A stretch of DNA of 58,897 nucleotides from an uncultured SAR86 cluster bacterium (GCA_902617955.1 CACMYW010000002.1:1-58897), one strand, 5' to 3'; shown: positions 29,470 through 42,502, counted from the first letter of the stretch. Numbers and translations: made by a program. Notes: generated by a model from the letters alone, not told the origin.

Positions 29470-31239
29470 CTATGAGTAGTCAAAAAAGGTTAAGTTGCCA
29501 TCTTTTAATTCAAAGATCTTATTGCATCCATATAAGTTTTCTTTTTTATGAGAAACAATCAAAATAGTCTTTTCTTTAAGGTTATAAATGGATTCTAATA
29601 CCTTGGCTTCGCTCTTTTCATCAAGTGAACTGGTAATTTCATCTAAGATCAATAAATTTGGATTCCTAATAAGTGCCCTTGCAATACCTATCCTTTGTTT
29701 TTGACCACCAGAAATATTTTTTTCGTTAATAATTTTCTTATCAGAATTAGTTTCAAGTCTAGTTACAAAATTTTCAAGGTCTGCTAGTCTAAGACACTTT
29801 TTGGCATGCTCAATTTTATCGCTAGTATATTCCTTATCAATAAATAAATTTATAAATAAAGAATCATTTAGGAGTGTGACCTCTTGTGGAACATATCCTA
29901 TTTTCGATTGCCATGAATTGTGGTTATTATTAGAAATTTCTAATCCATCGACTAAAATTTTTCCTCTTGATGGGCTTATGAGTCCCATGATTAAATCCAA
30001 AAGTGTTGATTTACCTCCACCAGACTTTCCAATAATACCTACACGATCATTTTTATTAATTTTTAAATTTATATCTTCAAGTTGATATTTTTTTGCATTT
30101 TCATATTTAAAATAAACATTCTCTAAAGTTAAGGTCTCTTTAAGCCTAATTTGGGTCGAGTCTTGTTTGTATATTTTCTTTTGCTCATTTTCTCTATAAG
30201 TTTCTATTCCACTTATTAAATTATCAATAATTTCGTCAAGATACTTAAGACTTGAAATTCCAATATAAATGCTTTGCATAGCCGGTTTAATTCTTATTAC
30301 CGCATATGTAAATAAAGCAAAATATGGAACAAGTTCTTGAACTATTGGAGCCTCTACGCCGCCATTAGTAATAATAAGTAACAGTGCAGCTAAAATTACT
30401 ACTGAAAATATTAATCCCTCAACTACAAAAGCAGAAGTCTGGTTTGCGGTCATAAATCTTGCCATAGATGAACCAGAAACTTTTGCAGCATCATCGTATT
30501 TTTTAATAAAAAAATTTTCTTGATTTTGAATCTTAATCATTTTGATTAAATTTGCTGCATCAATAATATGCTTATGTCGCTTCTCATTTGATGCGGAGAG
30601 AGATGCCCCAGCATTTTTTATAAAAGAATTTAATGAATTAAAAGTTAAAAGATATAAAACAATAAAGCTCACTAAAGCAATTAGTGTGGGTAATGGACTT
30701 ATTAATAAAAAAATTGAGCTGAGTAAAACTAAGAATATTGTTTGAGAAAAACCAATAACAACTGCCCTGAAAACTTTGTCCACAAAATAATCTACTTCAG
30801 AAATAACTGTTTTAGATGCATCTGCAGCATTGTGATTATAATAGAAAGAATATTCTGCATTTAAATAAACACTTAATAATCTTTTTGATAGACCAATCCT
30901 ATTTTCTTCAATGTATTTATTCATGTTATGTGAGGTGTAGGCCCTTAAAATTGTAGAAATTAAAATTAAGCCAGCAGATAGGACGCCCAAAAAAATTAAA
31001 AAACTATCTTTATCTATTTCGATCTTATTATTAAGAAGAGAATATATGTAAGAAAGAAAGCCATCGCCATTCAGTTGAGCAGGATCAATTATTAACATCA
31101 GGAATGGGAGTATTGATATGATCCCAATTGCATCAAGAAATGAAGCAAAAAACTGAACAAGAACTAATAATGCAAACTTTGTTCTTTGCTTTCTTGAAAG
31201 AAGTGTAAAAATTTTTGCTATCATTGCCTTGAGATTCAA
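29470..31239 (-). CDS. fused ABC transporter permease/ATPase (MsbA/PglK-like exporter)
   Basis: N-terminal 6-TM domain, Walker A GKSGGGKST, signature ISGGQKQRIGIARAL and Walker B LLILDEITSSLD. Confidence 0.88.
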   Translation of the reverse strand: MNLKAMIAKIFTLLSRKQRTKFALLVLVQFFASFLDAIGIISILPFLMLIIDPAQLNGDGFLSYIYSLLNNKIEIDKDSFLIFLGVLSAGLILISTILRAYTSHNMNKYIEENRIGLSKRLLSVYLNAEYSFYYNHNAADASKTVISEVDYFVDKVFRAVVIGFSQTIFLVLLSSIFLLISPLPTLIALVSFIVLYLLTFNSLNSFIKNAGASLSASNEKRHKHIIDAANLIKMIKIQNQENFFIKKYDDAAKVSGSSMARFMTANQTSAFVVEGLIFSVVILAALLLIITNGGVEAPIVQELVPYFALFTYAVIRIKPAMQSIYIGISSLKYLDEIIDNLISGIETYRENEQKKIYKQDSTQIRLKETLTLENVYFKYENAKKYQLEDINLKINKNDRVGIIGKSGGGKSTLLDLIMGLISPSRGKILVDGLEISNNNHNSWQSKIGYVPQEVTLLNDSLFINLFIDKEYTSDKIEHAKKCLRLADLENFVTRLETNSDKKIINEKNISGGQKQRIGIARALIRNPNLLILDEITSSLDEKSEAKVLESIYNLKEKTILIVSHKKENLYGCNKIFELKDGNLTFFDYS

Positions 31240-31392
31240 TCTATATCAGTATTTTCTTAAGATAAATTAATTACTAAGTTTATGTAATTGTATTAGAAAT
31301 TAAATAATATTTTTTACTTAAATAAATATTTAGGCTGAGTAATAAAATCATTTCAAAAATTAACTTATTAATTTACAAGTAATTCAATAATT

Positions 31393-31485
31393 TTATCTAC
31401 TAAAAAGATCAAAGCCAGTATGAAATAGAATAACAGGCAGAACTACTAATGCTCTCAAACCATCAATTTCAACCCTATAATTCAT
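31393..31485 (-). pseudogene. N-terminal remnant (30 codons + stop) of an acyltransferase-3 (OafA-like) gene
   Basis: Hand translation gives MNYRVEIDGLRALVVLPVILFHTGFDLFSR-stop. About 21 of the first 26 residues match the start of the intact acyltransferase at 37560 (MNYRPEIDGLRALAVLPVILFHAGFE). Confidence 0.8.
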
Positions 31486-31533
31486 ACAAAAATTATCTCT
31501 TTAAGCTTTAGTTAGCCTTACATAAACTTAATA

Positions 31534-31887
31534 TTACTCTTGCATACCAAATAGATAATCATGATGTGACAACTGATCAATTAAGTGGTATCCATTTGTG
31601 TGAAGAAAACTTTTTAGGCGATTAATATCTCTAGATTCAACCAAAATATATTTAAAGGAATACTTAAAAAAATTAACCCCTTTCAAAACTTCTAATTCTG
31701 CTCCTTCTACATCAAGTGATAATAAATCAATTACTGCGGGTGCATTAGTAGCGTCTAAAATACTAGATAAAGTTCTTGCTTTTGCTCCAAAACTCAGTGA
31801 CTTTTCATATTTGTTAAATCCCTTTCTTGCCTGATCAATAAAATCTTTTTTATTATTCGTCTTATCATATGGTTTTAAGGTAATTTT
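31534..31887 (-). pseudogene. C-terminal remnant of an FkbM-family methyltransferase (no start codon, N-terminal half missing)
   Basis: Hand translation gives KITLKPYDKTNNKKDFIDQARKGFNKYEKSLSFGAKARTLSSILDATNAPAVIDLLSLDVEGAELEVLKGVNFFKYSFKYILVESRDINRLKSFLHTNGYHLIDQLSHHDYLFGMQE-stop. (I/L)DLLxxDVEGAELEVLKG is the FkbM hallmark. The frame has no ATG except 3 codons from its end. Only 77 nt separate it from the next gene. Confidence 0.8.
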
Positions 31888-31964
31888 TTACAATTATTTC
31901 ATTTAAATTACATTAAGACTTCCGTTGACCAAATTCATAATTAACTTCACAAAGTATTACAACC

Positions 31965-33098
31965 TTAGGTATTTATCAGGTCTAGGCATTTGCTGTAAGC
32001 ATATGCAACAGCATGATAGCCTTTCTTATTAAGATGTTTCCAGTCTAATGGTCCATGAACAGGAATACCCTCTCTTGTTAATGACAAAATGCTCGATGTT
32101 GCATCACAAAAATGCCAATCATTTTTATCAAGATAAGAACTTATAACTTCGCGAATATATCTGCTCCTTTGATCATTAAACTCACCTGTGGTTTCAAAAT
32201 ACTCATTGCCTTGGTAGCTTTGTACTTTTAATTTACCATTAATTTCGTATGAGCTTGTTACAGAAGGAATATAAAGCAGTAAGAAATTATAAGCATCTGG
32301 CAACATGGTTTTTATCGAGTCTAGACTAGACATCAAGAGATTTACACTTTGATCAAGCTCATCATCATTTAATTCTGTTGCTGCTGATTGCGGATAAGTA
32401 TCTTTATATGCCTCAAAAAAATTATTAGTCAAAGGATTCTCATTTTTAGGTTTCTCTAACTCATCATTAATGTAGTCATCAAAAATTTTTAATAATCTTC
32501 TTAACTCTTTGAACATGAACTCATAAACTGGAAGAAAGAATCTAATTTTATAAGTTAGCTCATTAAATTTCCTCTCTTTCTCAACCAAATTATTATTAAG
32601 ATCATTTCCTTCATAAAATACAAAAGTTACTTGTGATCGAATAATTTCGTCCGTATTAAAATCCGTGTAAGTTGAAAGAAGTGGATAGCAATGCTTGAAT
32701 TCCATCACTGTTCCAATATTCCCGTATCCTCCGCGTCCAAAAATTAATGCACTGCTTTTGGTATCTTTAAGTTTATTAAAAATACCGTATTCTGGATCTG
32801 AGCTTAAAAATTCATCTCCAGCTCCTTCGCTAAAACTATCTCCAAATACAAAGTTTATTTGGCTTAAATTTTTGCCATCATAATGATAAAGGGTTCTGTA
32901 ACAAGGCAAGATTGATCCTGCTACTATTACAGGAAGATTTTTTAAAATTTTTGGTGAGTAGTAAACAAATGTAAAGTTAACTAAAGTGATAAGAAGAAAT
33001 GTTATTACAAGAATAGTCATGATATCTCTATTAGTACTTTTCTTAATCAAGCTCATATCTTTCTTTGTAATTTTCTTTGAGTGATGTGTCCTGCTCAT
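31965..33098 (-). CDS. membrane-anchored hypothetical protein, possible SGNH/GDSL-type esterase/acyltransferase
   Basis: One N-terminal TM segment. FVFGDSFSEGAGD resembles SGNH block I. Alternative starts at 33056 or 33020 would reduce or remove the 56-nt overlap with the carbamoyltransferase. Confidence 0.35.
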   Translation of the reverse strand: MSRTHHSKKITKKDMSLIKKSTNRDIMTILVITFLLITLVNFTFVYYSPKILKNLPVIVAGSILPCYRTLYHYDGKNLSQINFVFGDSFSEGAGDEFLSSDPEYGIFNKLKDTKSSALIFGRGGYGNIGTVMEFKHCYPLLSTYTDFNTDEIIRSQVTFVFYEGNDLNNNLVEKERKFNELTYKIRFFLPVYEFMFKELRRLLKIFDDYINDELEKPKNENPLTNNFFEAYKDTYPQSAATELNDDELDQSVNLLMSSLDSIKTMLPDAYNFLLLYIPSVTSSYEINGKLKVQSYQGNEYFETTGEFNDQRSRYIREVISSYLDKNDWHFCDATSSILSLTREGIPVHGPLDWKHLNKKGYHAVAYAYSKCLDLINT

Positions 33099-34881
33099 AT
33101 TTCAATAAAAAACAGTTTCCAATAACCAATATATCTAGTTCTGTACCCATAAAACATTTAAAGGCATCTAATGGTGAACAAACAATGGGTTCACCCCTTA
33201 CATTAAAGGAAGTGTTAACAACCAGTGGATAACCGGTTTTCTCCTTGAATTTTGTAATAACAGCATGATAAAGGGGATTAGTGTCTGCATGAACAGTTTG
33301 AATTCTCGCACTGTAATCCACATGAGTAATTGCTGGAACAGAAGAACGCGGAACATTTAACTTATCAATTCCAAATAGAAGTTCATTCTCTTGAGATACT
33401 GAAAGACGTTTTTGCTCTCTTACTTTTGTAACCAATAACATATAGGGACTATCTTCATCATGTTCAAACCAATCACTAACTTCTTCACGTAAAACACTTG
33501 GTGCAAAGGGTCTAAAACTTTCTCTAAATTTCACTTTTAGATTTAACTGTTTTTGCATTGTTGGTGAGCGTGGATCAGCAATAATGCTTCTCCCACCTAG
33601 CGCCCTAGGTCCAAACTCCATTCTGCCCTGCATCCAGCCGACTGCTTTTCCATTGGCAAGTGCCGATGCAACATTTTCTATTAACTCCGCATTTAAATGT
33701 TTTCTATAAATGGCGCCGGCTGAATTTAGCTGGTCTTCTATTTCAAAATCTGAATATCCTGGGCCTAAATAAGAACCCTTCATTGCATCACGTTGAGTTG
33801 AAGGATTGCGCTTATTAGTATTATGTAAATACCATGCACAAAAGGCTGCTCCCAGCGAGCCACCGGCATCACCAGCAGCTGGTTGTATCCAGATGTTATC
33901 AAAGATTTTTTCTTTCAATAATACGCCGTTAATTACGCAATTTAACGCAACCCCACCAGCAAGACACAAATTTCGCATACCAGTTTCCTTTGAAATGTTT
34001 TTTGCCATTTTTATAACAACTTCTTCCACAACTTTCTGTATTGATGCAGCTAAATCCATTTCTCGCTGTGTTAAATCTGTTTCTGAAGTTCGGGGTGGTC
34101 CTCCAAATAGTAAGTCAAATTTTTTACTGGTCATTGTAAGTCCGGTTGCATAATCAAAGTAGCTCATATCAAGCCAAAAGCTTCCATCCTCATGAATTTT
34201 TATTAAATTCTCTTTTATTAAATCAACATATTTTGGCTTTCCGTATGGTGCTAAACCCATTACCTTATATTCACCTGAATTTACTTTGAAGCCAGTGTAA
34301 AAAGTAAATGCTGAATAAAGTAAGCCTAGAGAGTGCGGAAACATAATTTCCTTTAAAACTCTTAAATTAGAGCCTTCTCCTATTGCCACTGAAGATGTTG
34401 TCCACTCACCCACTCCATCTATTGTTAATATAGCTGCTTTTTCAAAGGGCGATGGATAAAAGGCACTGGCTGCATGCGATAAATGATGCTCAGAAAATAA
34501 TATACGGTCATGCCATTTTGTTTCCTCACCAAGAATAGTAATAAGATCTTTTATCAATTGTGATTTTTGAAATAACTTATCCTTAATCCATAAAGGCATT
34601 GCCATTGCAAAGCTTTTAAATCCCTTAGGTGCAAATGCTAGATATGTTTCAAGAAGACGTTCAAACTTTAAAAAAGGTTTTTCATAGAAAATCACATGAC
34701 TGATCTCGTTAGCATTAATATTTGCCTCTTTTAAACAATACTCAATAGCATTTTTTGGGAAACTACTGTCATGCTTCTTTCGCGTAAATCGTTCTTCTTG
34801 AGCAGCAGCTACTATTTCACCATTTTTTATTAAAGATGCAGCACTATCATGATAAAAAGCAGATATACCAAGTATAAACAT
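33043..34881 (-). CDS. carbamoyltransferase (NodU/CmcH family)
   Basis: 612 aa. N-terminal MFILGISAFYHDSAASL. Both the N-terminal kinase-like domain and the C-terminal carbamoyltransferase domain are present by length. Confidence 0.88.
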   Translation of the reverse strand: MFILGISAFYHDSAASLIKNGEIVAAAQEERFTRKKHDSSFPKNAIEYCLKEANINANEISHVIFYEKPFLKFERLLETYLAFAPKGFKSFAMAMPLWIKDKLFQKSQLIKDLITILGEETKWHDRILFSEHHLSHAASAFYPSPFEKAAILTIDGVGEWTTSSVAIGEGSNLRVLKEIMFPHSLGLLYSAFTFYTGFKVNSGEYKVMGLAPYGKPKYVDLIKENLIKIHEDGSFWLDMSYFDYATGLTMTSKKFDLLFGGPPRTSETDLTQREMDLAASIQKVVEEVVIKMAKNISKETGMRNLCLAGGVALNCVINGVLLKEKIFDNIWIQPAAGDAGGSLGAAFCAWYLHNTNKRNPSTQRDAMKGSYLGPGYSDFEIEDQLNSAGAIYRKHLNAELIENVASALANGKAVGWMQGRMEFGPRALGGRSIIADPRSPTMQKQLNLKVKFRESFRPFAPSVLREEVSDWFEHDEDSPYMLLVTKVREQKRLSVSQENELLFGIDKLNVPRSSVPAITHVDYSARIQTVHADTNPLYHAVITKFKEKTGYPLVVNTSFNVRGEPIVCSPLDAFKCFMGTELDILVIGNCFLLKYEQDTSLKENYKERYELD

Positions 34882-34890
34882 GTTTTAAAT

Positions 34891-35040
34891 CTAGAATATC
34901 GTATATATAAAAGGAGCAATAACAGAGCCCTGAGCCAAAATCAATAAGCCACCCAAAATCAACATTACAAAGATAATTGGGGTTAACCAAAGCTTTTTAC
35001 GTACTCGAAGAAATGTAAGAAGCTCTTTTAAAAAATTCAT
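34891..35040 (-). CDS. 49-aa single-TM protein, DUF5989/SxtK-like (absent from the supplied ORF track)
   Basis: Hand translation gives MNFLKELLTFLRVRKKLWLTPIIFVMLILGGLLILAQGSVIAPFIYTIF-stop. It lies 9 nt upstream of the carbamoyltransferase ATG and 14 nt after the SxtJ-like stop. This small protein class typically accompanies SxtJ-like and carbamoyltransferase genes. Confidence 0.7.
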   Translation of the reverse strand: MNFLKELLTFLRVRKKLWLTPIIFVMLILGGLLILAQGSVIAPFIYTIF

Positions 35041-35054
35041 AGCTTATCTATACA

Positions 35055-35453
35055 TTAAAACTGATTTTTAAATAATGTTACTTGCGGTCCTTGTTTGCGT
35101 TTTACCCAGTCACTATCATTCTTTTTGTATCTCAGATTCAATTCGTCTCGTCCAAACAGTCGCATAATAATAGCCATGGGAGTAAAAATTCCAAAGAAAA
35201 TAACACCCATTACAATTGGGCCAATAATTTTTCCTATTAGAAATCCAAATCGCATCCATATGACGTTAAGAGGAGACAACACTTTTGGATTAAAAATACT
35301 TATTACCAAGAAAGTGACAAACAGCAATCCAAACATGTATAACAATATTTCATGGTCATCCAAGTAAAAGTAAATTGCAGCGATTAAGAAGATTAAAGTA
35401 AAAAATAAACCAAACTTCCGGTTTGAGGGTAATTCTATATTTGTATGGTCCAT
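35055..35453 (-). CDS. SxtJ-family small membrane protein
   Basis: 132 aa. Has NRKFGLFFTLIFLIAAIYF, further TM segments and a basic C-terminal tail (RLFGRDELNLRYKK). It occupies the usual SxtJ position next to a carbamoyltransferase. Confidence 0.6.
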   Translation of the reverse strand: MDHTNIELPSNRKFGLFFTLIFLIAAIYFYLDDHEILLYMFGLLFVTFLVISIFNPKVLSPLNVIWMRFGFLIGKIIGPIVMGVIFFGIFTPMAIIMRLFGRDELNLRYKKNDSDWVKRKQGPQVTLFKNQF

Positions 35454-35598
35454 ATAGTTTTTTTTATTTTTTTTACGTTAAAAATAATAAATATAATCTC
35501 TTACAGCATACCATTTTATGTTTAAGTTAATTACTTATAAGTTTTCAAAAATTGCATTTTAACATTTCAAAGTCTTGTAAACTCAGACCAATAATACT

Positions 35599-37560
35599 CT
35601 AATTTAAAATCACTTTTAGATCATTTAGTAAGAGCTTTGCTCCTTCAGAATTGAAATGATTTTCGTCAGAATATATCAATTTTTTCATATATATTGGTGA
35701 GCACATATTATTCGTTGAGCCTGATTTTCTACAGACATAATTTGAAGGAAAAACTCTTAGTACATTATCTCCCTCAATCTTATTTAGTAGATCAAAGGCC
35801 TTTTCTGATCTTTCATTGAAATATTTTTTTTCGTAGGAGTTATTTAAATTTTTTCCCCACAATAATCCTTTTGCATACAATTTATACTGATCAAAACCAA
35901 ATTCAGGTATTGGATAAATTAATATAAGTTGTGAACTAATTTCAGCGAGCCTGTGCAGATATTGTTCTACAGCATCTACATATTCATATTGAGAATCATC
36001 AATCGCAATGAAAGGTCTATATGTATCAGATTCCTCTCTAAAAAATTCTCCATCAGATAAGTAAAGTGGTAATCTACCGCCGACAACAATAATAGGATTG
36101 TCAAGCTCATTAATAAGCTTAAATCTCTCATTTTGGATTCTAAAACTACATGATTCCTGCTCTATTCCTGTTTTAGAAAATACTTTTCTAAATCCTAAAA
36201 CAGGGAAGCACTCTCCAGCAATCAACGGTATGAGAGTATAATCTTTGCTAAATTGATCATCCATGAAAACATTCACTAAAGATAATAAATGGCTATCTCC
36301 GATGAATATAATTTCTTTGCCTTTACCAATCCTGCATGTTTCATGGATATCCTTAATTTCAAAACAATTTTTACCAGATGGCAAAGTAATATCTCTATAA
36401 TCCACAAATTCTTGGAACTTGTTAATTCTATACTCGGCACCTTCTGATTTATCTAGTATTAAACCTATTGAGATAAATAAAATAATAAATGATGCTAATA
36501 ATTTAAAAATTGTAGTTCTTTTTACATAATTTTTTTGCCTAAATGGTCTTTCAACAAATAGCCAAGTTAGCCATCCTATAAATATTGACATCAAGCATAA
36601 AAATATCAGAATAGTCACTGATTCATCCTCAAAAAATCTATGCTTATAAAATGCTAGCAAAGGTTGGTGCCACAAATATGCGCTATAGGAAATAAGGCCC
36701 ATTCCGACAAATAATTTCATGCTGAGTAATTTATAAACGAAAGTCTTTGGTACAGCACATAAAATTAATAACAATGTTCCAATTGTAGGGATAAGGGCAT
36801 ATAAACCAGGAAAAGGCGTTGATTCATTAAAAGTGATAATCGAATAAACGATCATTCCAATACCTAATATGCTTAACAATTGATTAAAAAAATAAGAGCT
36901 AAAATGTAAATTATTCTTGAGATAAAATGCAGCAAAAACTCCAATTAGCAATTCCCAGCCTCTGGATGGCAAAAGAAAGAATGTACCTGATATTAATCTA
37001 GGAGTATTGGAATTCTGTATCCAAAATATCGCAAGAATTAAACTAACCAAAAAAGCTATAGATAGCAATATAAGTATAGTTTTAATTCCTAATCGCCAAG
37101 TGGTTAACAAGAATAAAGGGAATAATAAATAAAACTGCTCCTCAACTGCCAAACTCCAAGTATGAAGCAGAGGTTTCAACTCAGCTGCATTATCAAAGTA
37201 ACCGCTCTCCAACCAAAAGAGAATGTTTGATGAAAAAGTTGCAACAGCAATGAGGCTCTGCCCAAAGTCCTTTAAGTCATTAGGTGTAAGCCATAACCAT
37301 GCAAAAGGAAGAGATATAAACATCACAAAAAATAATGCTGGTAAAAGTCGTCGAGTTCTTCGCTCATAGAAGTTGATGAGGCTAAATGTACCTTTATCCA
37401 TTTCAGAGATAATAATGTTTGTTATTAAATAGCCGCTAATAACAAAAAAAACGTCAACCCCTACAAATCCTCCATCAAACCATTCAAAACCAGCATGAAA
37501 TAAAATTACCGGTAATACTGCTAAAGCTCTAAGCCCATCTATTTCTGGTCTATAATTCAT
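35599..37560 (-). CDS. acyltransferase family 3 O-acetyltransferase with a C-terminal SGNH-like domain (OafA/OatA-like)
   Basis: N-terminal RPEIDGLRALAVLPVILFHAG motif, ~10 TM segments, then a ~270-aa soluble domain (IFIGDSH). Confidence 0.88.
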   Translation of the reverse strand: MNYRPEIDGLRALAVLPVILFHAGFEWFDGGFVGVDVFFVISGYLITNIIISEMDKGTFSLINFYERRTRRLLPALFFVMFISLPFAWLWLTPNDLKDFGQSLIAVATFSSNILFWLESGYFDNAAELKPLLHTWSLAVEEQFYLLFPLFLLTTWRLGIKTILILLSIAFLVSLILAIFWIQNSNTPRLISGTFFLLPSRGWELLIGVFAAFYLKNNLHFSSYFFNQLLSILGIGMIVYSIITFNESTPFPGLYALIPTIGTLLLILCAVPKTFVYKLLSMKLFVGMGLISYSAYLWHQPLLAFYKHRFFEDESVTILIFLCLMSIFIGWLTWLFVERPFRQKNYVKRTTIFKLLASFIILFISIGLILDKSEGAEYRINKFQEFVDYRDITLPSGKNCFEIKDIHETCRIGKGKEIIFIGDSHLLSLVNVFMDDQFSKDYTLIPLIAGECFPVLGFRKVFSKTGIEQESCSFRIQNERFKLINELDNPIIVVGGRLPLYLSDGEFFREESDTYRPFIAIDDSQYEYVDAVEQYLHRLAEISSQLILIYPIPEFGFDQYKLYAKGLLWGKNLNNSYEKKYFNERSEKAFDLLNKIEGDNVLRVFPSNYVCRKSGSTNNMCSPIYMKKLIYSDENHFNSEGAKLLLNDLKVILN

Positions 37561-37731
37561 AACTTATTTTCTGCTTCACAAATAAAGGAATCTCTTAAAG
37601 ATACATAAACTAATCTTTTGTGCTGGGATGATTAAAAAGCTATAAAAATTTTATATTGTTCCCCATCACCATCGCATAGTTTAAAACCCCTTAGATACAG
37701 TACTTTTAAAACATTTTGTACGAAGTTTGTA

Positions 37732-38082
37732 TCATTTTTTTGAAAAAAATGTTTTTGCAAATCTATCAAGCAAACTTAATTTATCTTGAAGAACTACAAC
37801 CCCGTTCACCATTATTGATAATTTGACTGAGAAAAACCCTGCCAAAAAAACTTCAATAGATTTTATATCATCAGAAACTTCACTTTTAGTAAGCATTGCT
37901 TTGTTAGGATTTACCAACATGTCTGTGTTTCGATCTAAATGTTCATTATCTAAATATAAATCTGCGGCACCCTTCCCTTCCCAATTCCACCAATTAGATA
38001 CTTTGATTATTTTTCCATTAAAATTAACAGACCATTCTTTGTAATTAGATTTTTCCATTTTATTCACACTCAATAGGATCAA
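37732..38082 (-). CDS. hypothetical protein
   Basis: 116-aa ORF (a likelier start is the Met at MEKSNYKEW). No recognisable motif. Coding status is inferred only from length and tight spacing to the upstream methyltransferase. Confidence 0.4.
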   Translation of the reverse strand: MILLSVNKMEKSNYKEWSVNFNGKIIKVSNWWNWEGKGAADLYLDNEHLDRNTDMLVNPNKAMLTKSEVSDDIKSIEVFLAGFFSVKLSIMVNGVVVLQDKLSLLDRFAKTFFSKK

Positions 38083-38095
38083 TTACTTATTTAAT

Positions 38096-38923
38096 TCACA
38101 TCGATTTATTGAAATAAAGTTTCATATAAGGCAAAAAGTTGGGAAACTTCTTTATTAAGTTCAAAACTCCTAAAGCCTTCAACAACGAGGCAACTTTTCC
38201 AATAGTAGATTGTCGTTTCCTAAATTCAGCATCCTTTGACACTCGCTCAATCATGTAGTCAATTATTGAAGTGTCGTCACTCACAGAGAATCCAAGTTTC
38301 GAAATATTTTTTTTACAGTACGCTAAAACATGTCTCTTTTTGACAAAGTTTAAAGACTTCCAAAGTCCCAAAGAGTTGTTATTTTTTTCAAAATTTAAGA
38401 TGTTGTTTCCAAAAATACTAAAAGTGAGTCTTTTATTAAAAATAATAGGTATTTTGAAGTGTGATTCATAAGGAAATCCATAATTTGGACAAAGTACTAC
38501 AAATCGTCCATTTTCAGTAAGATTGTTAGAGGCCCAATCTAAAAAATGCTGCCAATCATTAACGTGCTCAAAAACATTTACGCAGTAAATAAAATCATAC
38601 CTAGATTGATGTTCTTCATACCTTTCAATCGACAGATTTACACCTAAGTCTTTAACAACAGCATTCAAATCTTTAAGGTTTGAAAATCCATCTCCAAATG
38701 GCTCAATCCCCAAAAATTTATGGTTAGGAAATTCTTCAGCTAAAACAGACAAGAGAATTCCGCTTCCACACCCAACTTCCAATATTTTTGAGTCATCAGC
38801 AAGTGAAGATATTGTTTCTTTTAATTGCGAAAATCCAAATTTCGCTTCTGCAAGCCATAATTTCGAATTATCTAAATCAGAAGCATTGATAAATTTTGTG
38901 ATTTTGTAATTATTCAAGTTCAT
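38096..38923 (-). CDS. class I SAM-dependent methyltransferase
   Basis: ILEVGCGSGILLS motif I, with a downstream acidic/aromatic motif (IYCVNVFEHV). Confidence 0.85.
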   Translation of the reverse strand: MNLNNYKITKFINASDLDNSKLWLAEAKFGFSQLKETISSLADDSKILEVGCGSGILLSVLAEEFPNHKFLGIEPFGDGFSNLKDLNAVVKDLGVNLSIERYEEHQSRYDFIYCVNVFEHVNDWQHFLDWASNNLTENGRFVVLCPNYGFPYESHFKIPIIFNKRLTFSIFGNNILNFEKNNNSLGLWKSLNFVKKRHVLAYCKKNISKLGFSVSDDTSIIDYMIERVSKDAEFRKRQSTIGKVASLLKALGVLNLIKKFPNFLPYMKLYFNKSM

Positions 38924-40921: not shown

Positions 40922-42502
40922 TTATTCCCACTCAATAGTTGCAGGTGGTTTGCCTGAGATATCATAAACTACCCTGCTCACTCCCTCTAATTCATTTACG
41001 ATCCTGTTTGATACTTTCCCCAAAAACTCTAAAGGTAATTTTGACCATTCAGCTGTCATAAAGTCAACAGTCTTAACAGACCTTAGAGCTATAACATCTG
41101 CATAACGTCTTTCATCCCCAACGACACCAACAGATTTTACTGGTAGGTATACACAAAATGCTTGGCTGACCTCGTCATAAAGGCCCTCTTTTTTTAATTC
41201 ATCAATAAAAATTGAGTCTGCCTCTTGCAGTATTGAAATATTTTCTTGATTTATCTCACCCAATATTCTTACTCCGAGTCCGGGACCAGGAAAAGGATGT
41301 CTTTTAAGTATTTCATTAGGCAGGCCTAATAAAGCGCCCATTTTTCTGACCTCATCTTTAAATAGATCCCTAAGAGGTTCTACTAAGCTCATCTTCATTT
41401 CATCTGGCAATCCACCAACGTTGTGATGAGACTTAATTATTCTAGCTTCCTTTGATTCAGACTCAGATGATTCAATCACATCAGGATAAATTGTTCCTTG
41501 TGCTAAAAAACTTATTTCGTCAGAGGTATGTAAATTTACTGATTCGTTATCAAAAACATCTATAAAGGTCCTACCGATAACTTTTCTTTTTTGCTCGGGA
41601 TCAGTTACGCCTTTTAGGTGCCTATAAAATGTTTTCTTTGCATCCACAACCTCAAGGTTAAGATTAATTTTATTTTTAAAAAGATCTATTACCTCATTAA
41701 CTTCATTTTTTCTTAATAGGCCGTTATCAACGAACATACAAATTAAGTTTTTACCGATCGCCCTATCAAGCAACATAGCAGTTACCGATGAATCGACTCC
41801 CCCAGATAGTCCTAAAAGAACTTTTTTATCCCCAACTTTCGCTTTAATGTCTTTTATTCTGTGATCAATTAAATCATTTAATTTCCAATTTCTTCTAGAT
41901 TTACAAATATCTATTATAAAATTTTCAATGATTTTTTGGCCCTTATCTGTATGCGTTACTTCGGGATGAAATTGAAGAGCATAATAAGGCATATCTTTAT
42001 GCTCCATTGCCGCGATAGGTGCAGATTGAGTTGATGCACTCAATATAAAATCATCGGGCAAGATCGAAACATGATCTCCGTGACTCATCCAAACATCTAG
42101 ATTTTTTGTATCTAAGTCATCAAAGATTTTAGAGGCATACTCAATCTTTAATTCTGCATAACCAAACTCCTTTGTAGATGAAGTGGTTACACTTCCTCCA
42201 TTTTGCTCGGCCAGTGTTTGCATTCCATAACAAATACCCAGAATAGGAATGCCTAAGTTAAAAATAATTTCTGGAATTCTTGGAGTATTTTCTTGAGTTA
42301 CAGATTCTGGGCCACCAGATAGAATTACCCCTTTAGGGTTTAGTGCAGATATTTTTTCTGTTGCAATATCCCATGGGAATATTTCGGAATAAACTCCAAG
42401 TTCTCTGACTCTTCTAGCTATTAATTGAGTATATTGAGATCCAAAATCTAAAACTAAAATAGTATCAAGATCTGACTTTGATAAAGTTATATTACTGCTC
42501 AT
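40922..42502 (-). CDS. guaA: GMP synthase (glutamine-hydrolysing)
   Basis: GATase domain (GICYGMQ), PP-loop [11 protein letters not shown] and the canonical C-terminus [10 protein letters not shown]. Confidence 0.97.

Follow-up and report, generated by a model that had tools for sequence, protein, structure and literature searches.

Introduction

Among the systems described so far, the closest to the locus treated here is a set of neighbouring genes in the saxitoxin clusters, namely sxtI (1839 bp), assigned to carbamoylation, sxtJ (405 bp) and sxtK (165 bp), both of unknown function, and sxtL (1281 bp), a GDSL lipase related to 'decarbamoylation'. SxtJ and SxtK have lacked an explanation since the saxitoxin cluster was described in 2008, and in a 2026 preprint SxtI, SxtJ and SxtK are still only 'hypothesised to work in conjunction'. 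The present work deals with four genes of these kinds located on the minus strand, at positions 31965-35453, of a stretch of DNA of 58,897 nt from an uncultured SAR86 cluster bacterium (the window, in which positions are counted). They encode a SxtJ-family membrane protein, a DUF5989 (SxtK-type) microprotein, an O-carbamoyltransferase (CT) and a transmembrane (TM)-anchored protein of the SGNH hydrolase fold, and very probably constitute an envelope-associated carbamoylation module of the SxtIJKL type. What is new in this cassette is the recognition of an FXYXXF tail on DUF5989, a free microprotein tied to a carbamoyltransferase and not to an MBOAT protein.

The FXYXXF sequence has been defined as an 'acyl shuttle' motif, which forms the C-terminus of DltX, outside the cytoplasm, or is joined to an MBOAT, as in PatA (FIYANF), and whose tyrosine hands the acyl group over to the active-site serine of an SGNH protein (PMC12148441). 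According to this 2025 study of PatAB, a DltX-like microprotein is absent from pathways other than Dlt (PMC12148441). In L. plantarum, the 49 residues of DltX terminate in FIYNEF; the TM helices of DltX and DltD form a pair, and the final residues of DltX occupy the DltD pocket (PMC13653941).

A search of about 8.4 million papers retrieved none mentioning DUF5989, nor any joining the acyl shuttle to carbamoyl transfer. To our knowledge, the soluble O-carbamoyltransferases (TobZ, NovN, GdmN, NodU and CmcH) have not been described with partners of the SxtJ/DUF5989 type. A preliminary description of this DNA had drawn the parallel with saxitoxin for the trio formed by the carbamoyltransferase and the two small proteins, pointing out that the latter have no assigned function there. 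The literature agrees with this, and the parallel holds for the trio; the fourth part had been overlooked, since the saxitoxin clusters also contain sxtL.

Organisation of the cassette

The four minus-strand open reading frames (ORFs) noted earlier, encoding 132, 49 and 612 aa and a protein with a GDSxxxG block, are all present. The gene for the SxtJ-family membrane protein (35055-35453, 132 aa) matches PF19588 with 29.8 bits (cut-off 24.4) over profile positions 4-98 of 99, and that for the DUF5989 microprotein (34891-35040, 49 aa) matches PF19451 with 84.6 bits (cut-off 27) over positions 1-49 of 49, so that the family assignments proposed for both small proteins are borne out. The next gene (33043-34881) encodes a 612-aa O-carbamoyltransferase of the TobZ/NodU/CmcH/SxtI type, in which both Pfam domains, Carbam_trans_N (358 bits) and Carbam_trans_C (247 bits), are full length. 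The last one (31965-33056) encodes the TM-anchored SGNH hydrolase-fold protein, of 363 aa from Met15; the longest ORF, of 377 aa, begins at 33098.

The spacer between the SxtJ and DUF5989 genes measures 14 nt (tgtatagataagct) and that between DUF5989 and CT 9 nt (atttaaaac), exactly as first reported, and the last junction, for which either an overlap or a nearly null distance had been considered, is an overlap, of 14 nt (ATGAGCTTGATTAA) with the Met15 start (33056) and of 56 nt with the longest ORF. Judging from sequence comparisons, Met15 is more likely than 33098 to be the start of the SGNH gene, because its homologues are 359-367 aa long, because this start is used by three of the four gene calls in near-identical contigs, and because the identical 14-nt overlap is found in nine other loci. 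This recurrence is due to the conserved C-terminus of the CT, YELD* (TAT GAG CTT GAT TAA), which includes an ATG. In three of the four near-identical contigs (L085, L086 and L087) the gene callers missed the 49 codons of the DUF5989 gene; the microprotein is therefore systematically under-annotated.

Conservation of the cassette across genomes

A census in which one genome per species was scanned with the SxtJ alignment yielded 80 loci from named genomes, which span SAR11, SAR116, SAR86, other Alpha-, Beta- and Gammaproteobacteria, Flavobacteriales and Acidobacteriota. SxtJ, DUF5989 and CT follow one another on one strand, in the same order and with gaps of 1-15 nt, in 77 of the 80 loci, far beyond what chance would give. 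Thus, the co-occurrence of the two small-protein families with carbamoyltransferases in other genomes, on which the preliminary description depended, is near-universal. In the three loci without the intact trio, DUF5989 is decayed (L021), only a deletion remnant is left (L026) or the contig ends (L082).

Mean column identity reaches 78% in the CT (76 cassette sequences) and 82% in DUF5989 (44 sequences from several phyla) versus 13% in the SGNH ORFs downstream, a contrast which suggests that the acceptor of the CT is constant and that specificity resides in the SGNH protein. On these sequence data, the trio is the invariant core of the cassette, and the TM-anchored SGNH protein is its frequent, fast-evolving fourth part. 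The four-gene unit initially proposed stands as regards the core, the SGNH gene being a frequent and not a universal partner, adjacent in 30-42 of the 77 loci. The cassette is a portable and very widespread unit, common in the most abundant bacteria of the ocean, including SAR11, SAR116 and SAR86, and the microprotein family alone comprises 5,124 cluster representatives at 50% identity.

With respect to individual loci, L021 (8400-8570) contains a DUF5989 pseudogene with in-frame stops beside an intact CT gene, and L026 (8400-8900) only SxtJ and the first 12 codons of DUF5989, at a deletion scar. In L001 (4603-5806), which belongs to a 2.96-Mb genome, SxtJ is separated from DUF5989/CT by the insertion of a reverse-transcriptase gene (RVT_1, group II intron-like) and of a 72-aa ORF; the remaining parts are intact, among them an SGNH gene that overlaps the CT stop.

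The DUF5989 microprotein and its C-terminal motif

The microprotein is made up of a basic amphipathic head (residues 1-18, net charge +3.3), a TM helix (19-36) and a 13-residue uncharged tail (QGSVIAPFIYTIF, net charge 0). Since the head is positive and the tail uncharged, the positive-inside rule predicts an N-in/C-out orientation, with the tail in the periplasm. In the window, this tail terminates in FIYTIF (residues 44-49; codons F44-I-Y46-T-I-F49 at 34894-34911), which constitutes an FXYXXF motif at the extreme C-terminus. The ending F[IV]YTxF is the C-terminus of 77 of the 78 DUF5989 copies, the lone exception being truncated by a contig end, and F.Y..F terminates just one of the 9,206 background ORFs of the same loci, with 0.88 expected. 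Among the top 150 of the 5,124 representatives, 115 end in F.Y..F, and most of the others have the motif together with read-through artefacts. When the C-termini are compared, genuine DltX shows GQGSFIYNEF and DUF5989 AQGSvvAPFIYTLF.

The assignment of DUF5989 to the DltX family was considered and rejected, with negative results in Pfam, in hhalign and in a PDB profile search, in which DUF5989 gave no matches. Long DUF5989 representatives were likewise discarded as SxtJ-DUF5989 fusions, being out-of-frame upstream extensions or read-through gene calls. In the representatives P0302 and P0374, DUF5989 reads into the N-terminus of the CT, and Q stands where the stop would be, owing either to gene calling with a stop-reassigned code or to lineages that read TAA/TAG as Gln.

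The carbamoyltransferase and SxtJ

Lacking both a TM segment and a signal peptide, the CT is predicted to be cytoplasmic. It carries the motif GPRALGGRS (read from the translation), and its matches in the PDB are NovN, GdmN and TobZ (E 3e-89 to 1e-83), the alignment with NovN covering residues 9-592 (E 3e-89); against the NodU equivalog model it obtains 155 bits, below the cut-off of 1000. Cassette CTs are nearly always 612 aa long, which equals the length of sxtI. An insertion at about residues 76-106 (34564-34656, ERLLETYLAFAPKGFKSFAMAMPLWIKDKLFQK) is absent from NovN; basic and amphipathic, this segment is the most conserved part of the CT (86% column identity over 76 CTs) and could be a membrane- or partner-docking element.

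SxtJ has more than 2,074 homologues, and its relatives are named 'SxtJ family membrane protein' by NCBI; those of the 80-locus scan are 39-55% identical to the window protein. The AlphaFold2 (AF2) model (pLDDT 82.7) comprises helices 11-31 and 35-54, a long helix 56-99 and then a basic C-terminal tail, and the conserved motifs are LPSNRKFG at the N-terminus, LPLN..W, GRDEL.L and the C-terminal FK.QF. The latter, F-K-x-Q-F, forms the extreme C-terminus (35055-35072) and ends the basic tail; K129 and F132 are nearly invariant and Q131 is invariant.

The SGNH-fold protein

The fourth protein scores below the Pfam GDSL cut-off (20.8 vs 32.9 bits). In a 53-sequence alignment the blocks G72-D73-S74, G110/G112, G150-N151-D152 and D338/H341 (DWKH) are invariant or nearly so, and the AF2 model (pLDDT 93.1) has an N-terminal helix (2-40) and, after it, an alpha/beta domain; with this model, Foldseek retrieved many GDSL esterases with probability 1.00 and TMt up to 0.68. 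From its alignment and model, it is a genuine SGNH-fold enzyme despite the weak Pfam score, and it may be a transferase or an esterase, two functions that Foldseek cannot separate. About 128 homologues were found, none of them with a name. The SGNH domain is predicted to be periplasmic because a basic head is followed by a TM helix and an acidic catalytic domain.

In most of the loci, the CT is followed immediately, or with an overlap, by an ORF of 300-430 aa, and despite the divergence of these ORFs G72, S74, H341 and G346 are nearly invariant among them. Fifty of these downstream ORFs gave 26 Pfam matches to GDSL_2, 23 to GDSL and eight to ALGX, and hhalign related clusters covering 28 loci to the window SGNH family with at least 89% probability. 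Iteration from the SGNH family with a single HMM recovered only nine downstream ORFs, so that profile-profile comparison and motif signatures were needed. As a signature, a TM anchor together with blocks I and V was used; 30 of the 77 loci show all of it and 12 others a part (42 of 77), the usual overlap with the CT stop being 4-26 nt. In a glycosyltransferase locus, the gene for a homologue with 36% identity to the window SGNH protein likewise runs over the stop of a CT gene preceded by SxtJ, and more distant relatives (25% identity) occur without a CT nearby.

Genomic surroundings

Directly upstream of the cassette in the window lies a complete O-acyltransferase gene of the AT3-SGNH (OafA/OatA) type (35599-37560, minus strand; Acyl_transf_3 plus SGNH domain), which represents a separate, self-sufficient acylation system. 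Downstream there is a PglK/MsbA-like ABC exporter (29470-31239, minus strand; ABC_membrane plus ABC_tran), with a score of 278 bits for the PglK NCBIfam model, below its cut-off of 1000. The island also includes genes for NeuC, NeuB, a PglD-like acetyltransferase, nucleotidyl- and cytidylyltransferases, a Capsule_synth protein, a HisH/HisF-like pair, a formyltransferase and methyltransferases. By Pfam, the window genes between 13.4 and 46.9 kb belong only to sugar-nucleotide, glycan, purine and transport functions, and none of the core sxt genes (the sxtA-type PKS-like gene, the amidinotransferase sxtG and others) is among them; therefore, this is not a toxin cluster.

The glycan locus with an OafA neighbour, as announced in the preliminary description, is thus real here, and near-identical metagenomic contigs have the same gene order as the window. 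As a property of the cassette it does not hold: over the 77 loci the flanking genes are heterogeneous and clearly of glycan type in a minority of loci, an AT3 gene is near the cassette in only two of the 80 loci, and some 20 SAR11 loci have metabolic neighbours. Because of this heterogeneity, sequence comparison indicates that the glycan/OafA context is local to the lineage of the window, and the use of the cassette as a 'glycan-locus marker' was rejected on the same census of flanking genes.

In SAR11, about 20 Pelagibacteraceae loci (e.g., L056:5997-7781, L072:1748-2833 and L078:4682-5848) share a conserved non-glycan neighbourhood around the trio, with a TPP enzyme directly upstream and genes for a TauE sulfite exporter, a galactarate/altronate dehydratase-like protein, YeiH and TerC; in five SAR11 loci an SGNH-like gene is convergent to the CT, with an overlap of 4 nt. 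In eight loci from different lineages, guaA lies directly upstream of SxtJ (L030:4254-8399 and seven others), preceded by guaB in L030, and in the window guaA is found at 40922-42502, 5.5 kb from the cassette. From these positions, the cassette seems to have landed repeatedly on the 3' side of guaA.

In near-identical metagenomic relatives (L084:9153-9878 and L085:8409-9134), the genes for the SGNH protein and the ABC exporter are separated by an intact gene for a 241-aa methyltransferase of the FkbM type (PF05050). The window has a mere 725-bp gap (31240-31964) at this place; the gene has therefore decayed or been lost in this strain.

As regards transcription, short metatranscriptome contigs with 99-100% identity fall within three of the genes, those for SGNH (32187-32350), CT (33281-33476 and 33509-33691) and SxtJ (35084-35299). 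None of them crosses a cassette gene junction, and DNA carry-over is a possible source of these contigs. A promoter and terminator scan of 31000-38200 gave fewer hits than in shuffled sequences and is uninformative.

Proposed carbamoyl relay and alternative explanations

By analogy with the acyl shuttle systems, the four proteins could act as a relay in which a carbamoyl group passes from the CT to Tyr46 of DUF5989, then to the serine of the SGNH protein and finally to an envelope acceptor, a proposal whose chances we place a little short of even. In the cytoplasm, the CT would make carbamoyl-AMP from carbamoyl phosphate and ATP, like TobZ, and would dock on the membrane proteins SxtJ and DUF5989. 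Tyr46 of the FIYTIF tail, on the predicted periplasmic side, would receive the carbamoyl group, and the tail would then hand it to Ser74 of the TM-anchored periplasmic SGNH protein, which would move it onto a hydroxyl of the envelope acceptor. In the window, this acceptor would probably be the glycan with nonulosonic acid that the surrounding island produces. Aryl carbamates react with serine hydrolases by carbamoylating their catalytic serine, and an O-carbamoyl-tyrosine would therefore be a competent donor. The FXYXXF tail and the predicted periplasmic SGNH domain give a concrete footing to the earlier suggestion that the small proteins link a cytoplasmic enzyme with a step outside the cytoplasm; the function itself we infer, as we do the topology (from the positive-inside rule and hydropathy only), the carbamoyl-tyrosine intermediate, the role of the SGNH protein as a transferase and the nature of the acceptor.

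A considerable number of observations weigh against this relay. Its support consists of sequence and model data, and the step that we infer most freely is the passage of the carbamoyl group from the cytoplasmic active site to the periplasmic tyrosine, for which no route is evident. The cassette has no AT3 conduit, and no MBOAT was found in the annotated genes of the window or among the top 25 flanking families of the 77 loci. SxtJ is small (132 aa, three predicted helices), its model gave no meaningful Foldseek match in the PDB and thus has no structural relative, its invariant columns hold no His and it has no MBOAT match in Pfam. Its charge pattern is ambiguous, since it is readable as placing most of the conserved motifs in the cytoplasm, and can be read as fitting a docking platform for the CT better than a channel or conduit. 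With regard to the microprotein, the DltX profile (PF12459) has no match at E<=10 in any of 44 DUF5989 members, and hhalign gave 1.1% probability against five genuine DltX proteins; the likeness to DltX is limited to motif and architecture and could have arisen by convergence or by coincidence. As for the SGNH protein, an adjacent gene is missing in 35-47 of the 77 loci, the Gly of block II is canonical, unlike in the transferases PatB and OatA, and the top 50 Foldseek matches begin with esterases and include no DltD, PatB or AlgJ. Moreover, the acceptor presumed for saxitoxin biosynthesis is a soluble small molecule.

Alternatively, SxtJ and DUF5989 might do no more than tether and orient the CT at the inner face of the membrane, where it would directly carbamoylate a lipid-linked (e.g., undecaprenyl-PP) or another membrane-bound acceptor before export. 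The SGNH protein would then be an editing esterase that later trims carbamoyl or acetyl groups, as Ape1 does on peptidoglycan and as the literature proposes for SxtL. The CT possesses a complete catalytic apparatus of the TobZ type, and all its solved relatives transfer directly to hydroxyl acceptors; SxtJ is too small for the known acyl conduits, and its conserved basic segments can mostly be placed in the cytoplasm; the block II Gly is of the hydrolase type, the nearest structures are esterases and SxtL is annotated with 'decarbamoylation'; furthermore, the window contains a PglK-like flippase just downstream. We nevertheless regard such simple anchoring as unlikely, even if it deserves to be taken seriously, because it leaves unexplained an uncharged, predicted-periplasmic 13-residue tail whose F-I-Y-T-x-F ending is invariant across phyla, the 78% identity of the CT in spite of different glycans, with only the SGNH protein diverging, and the frequent translational coupling of the SGNH gene to the CT. 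The carbamoyl relay would account for these three features, which suggests that it is the better description.

The two other explanations that we have considered are less probable. One would limit the unit to the trio and regard the SGNH protein as unrelated to it, a general envelope esterase or acyltransferase serving the AT3-SGNH O-acetylation or the island. This would agree with the 35-47 of 77 loci in which no adjacent SGNH-like gene is seen, with the complete OafA-type enzyme that adjoins the cassette in the window and with the relatives of 25% identity that live apart from any CT. However, overlaps of 4-26 nt with the CT stop occur in dozens of loci without AT3, which is near only two of the 80, the CT-SGNH pairing is retained at 36% identity, and a fourth part of the GDSL kind is also present in saxitoxin clusters, all of which makes an unrelated SGNH protein improbable. 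The remaining explanation, that the cassette tailors a secreted or secondary metabolite, as in saxitoxin, with the two membrane proteins coupling carbamoylation to export, we consider more improbable still. The sole named members of the families come from a small-molecule pathway, and the flanks over the 77 loci are heterogeneous and mostly not glycan, in agreement with it; against this, the window and its close relatives have the cassette in an island of the nonulosonic-acid/capsule type, with no PKS, NRPS, amidinotransferase or other sxt-type genes, and the family is huge (5,124 representatives) and present in the streamlined genomes of SAR11, which make few secondary metabolites.

If the carbamoyl relay were true, SxtJ, SxtK and SxtL of the saxitoxin clusters would be parts of a carbamoyl relay, and not 'unknown, unknown, decarbamoylase', which offers a testable role for proteins that have gone so long without one. 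The principle of the tyrosine shuttle would then hold for a donor chemistry and a membrane partner that are both new to it, and carbamoylated surface glycans would be expected in marine bacteria, affecting recognition by phages and grazers.

Comparison with known systems

According to the Pfam models and published descriptions, the cassette has the composition of sxtI-J-K-L, with a 612-aa CT, a SxtJ of about 132 aa, a SxtK/DUF5989 of about 50 aa and, as the putative counterpart of SxtL, a GDSL/SGNH protein. It differs in the order, I-J-K-L there and J-K-I-L in the window, and in its context, which in the window is a surface-glycan island.

The Dlt D-alanylation pathway (DltA/DltC, DltB, DltX and DltD) shares with the cassette a cytoplasmic adenylate-forming enzyme, a 49-aa microprotein with a single TM segment and an F-I-Y-x-x-F end, and an SGNH partner with an N-terminal TM anchor and its catalytic domain outside the cytoplasm (DltD), a location that for the cassette is only predicted. 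However, the cassette has neither an MBOAT, such as DltB, nor a carrier protein, the group to be transferred would be carbamoyl and not D-alanyl, and its envelope is Gram-negative; in DUF5989, QGS and FIY are separated by four additional residues (VVAP), and homology to DltX is not detectable.

In PatA/PatB, which O-acetylate peptidoglycan, and in other MBOAT-SGNH pairs (AlgI/AlgJ/AlgX), an FXYXXF shuttle also feeds a periplasmic SGNH transferase, and it is to ALGX that eight of the 50 downstream ORFs match. These systems differ in that the MBOAT itself carries the motif and acetyl-CoA serves as donor, and block II of PatB is non-canonical, whereas the cassette SGNH protein has the canonical Gly. 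OafA and OatA likewise modify envelope glycans by means of a membrane domain and an extracytoplasmic SGNH domain; these are joined in one fused polypeptide with a 10-TM AT3 domain, which uses acetyl-CoA and has no sequence relation to SxtJ or DUF5989. Finally, TobZ, NovN, GdmN, NodU and CmcH are two-domain enzymes (Kae1-like plus YrdC-like), as is the cassette CT, but they act alone and on soluble acceptors, and the cassette CT has the extra segment at about 76-106 (as compared with NovN).

It is conceivable, though we would rather doubt it than count on it at present, that CT, SxtJ, DUF5989 and SGNH make up a third and very widespread class of trans-envelope group transfer, independent of both MBOAT and AT3, in which interchangeable, fast-evolving SGNH transferases would serve different acceptors.

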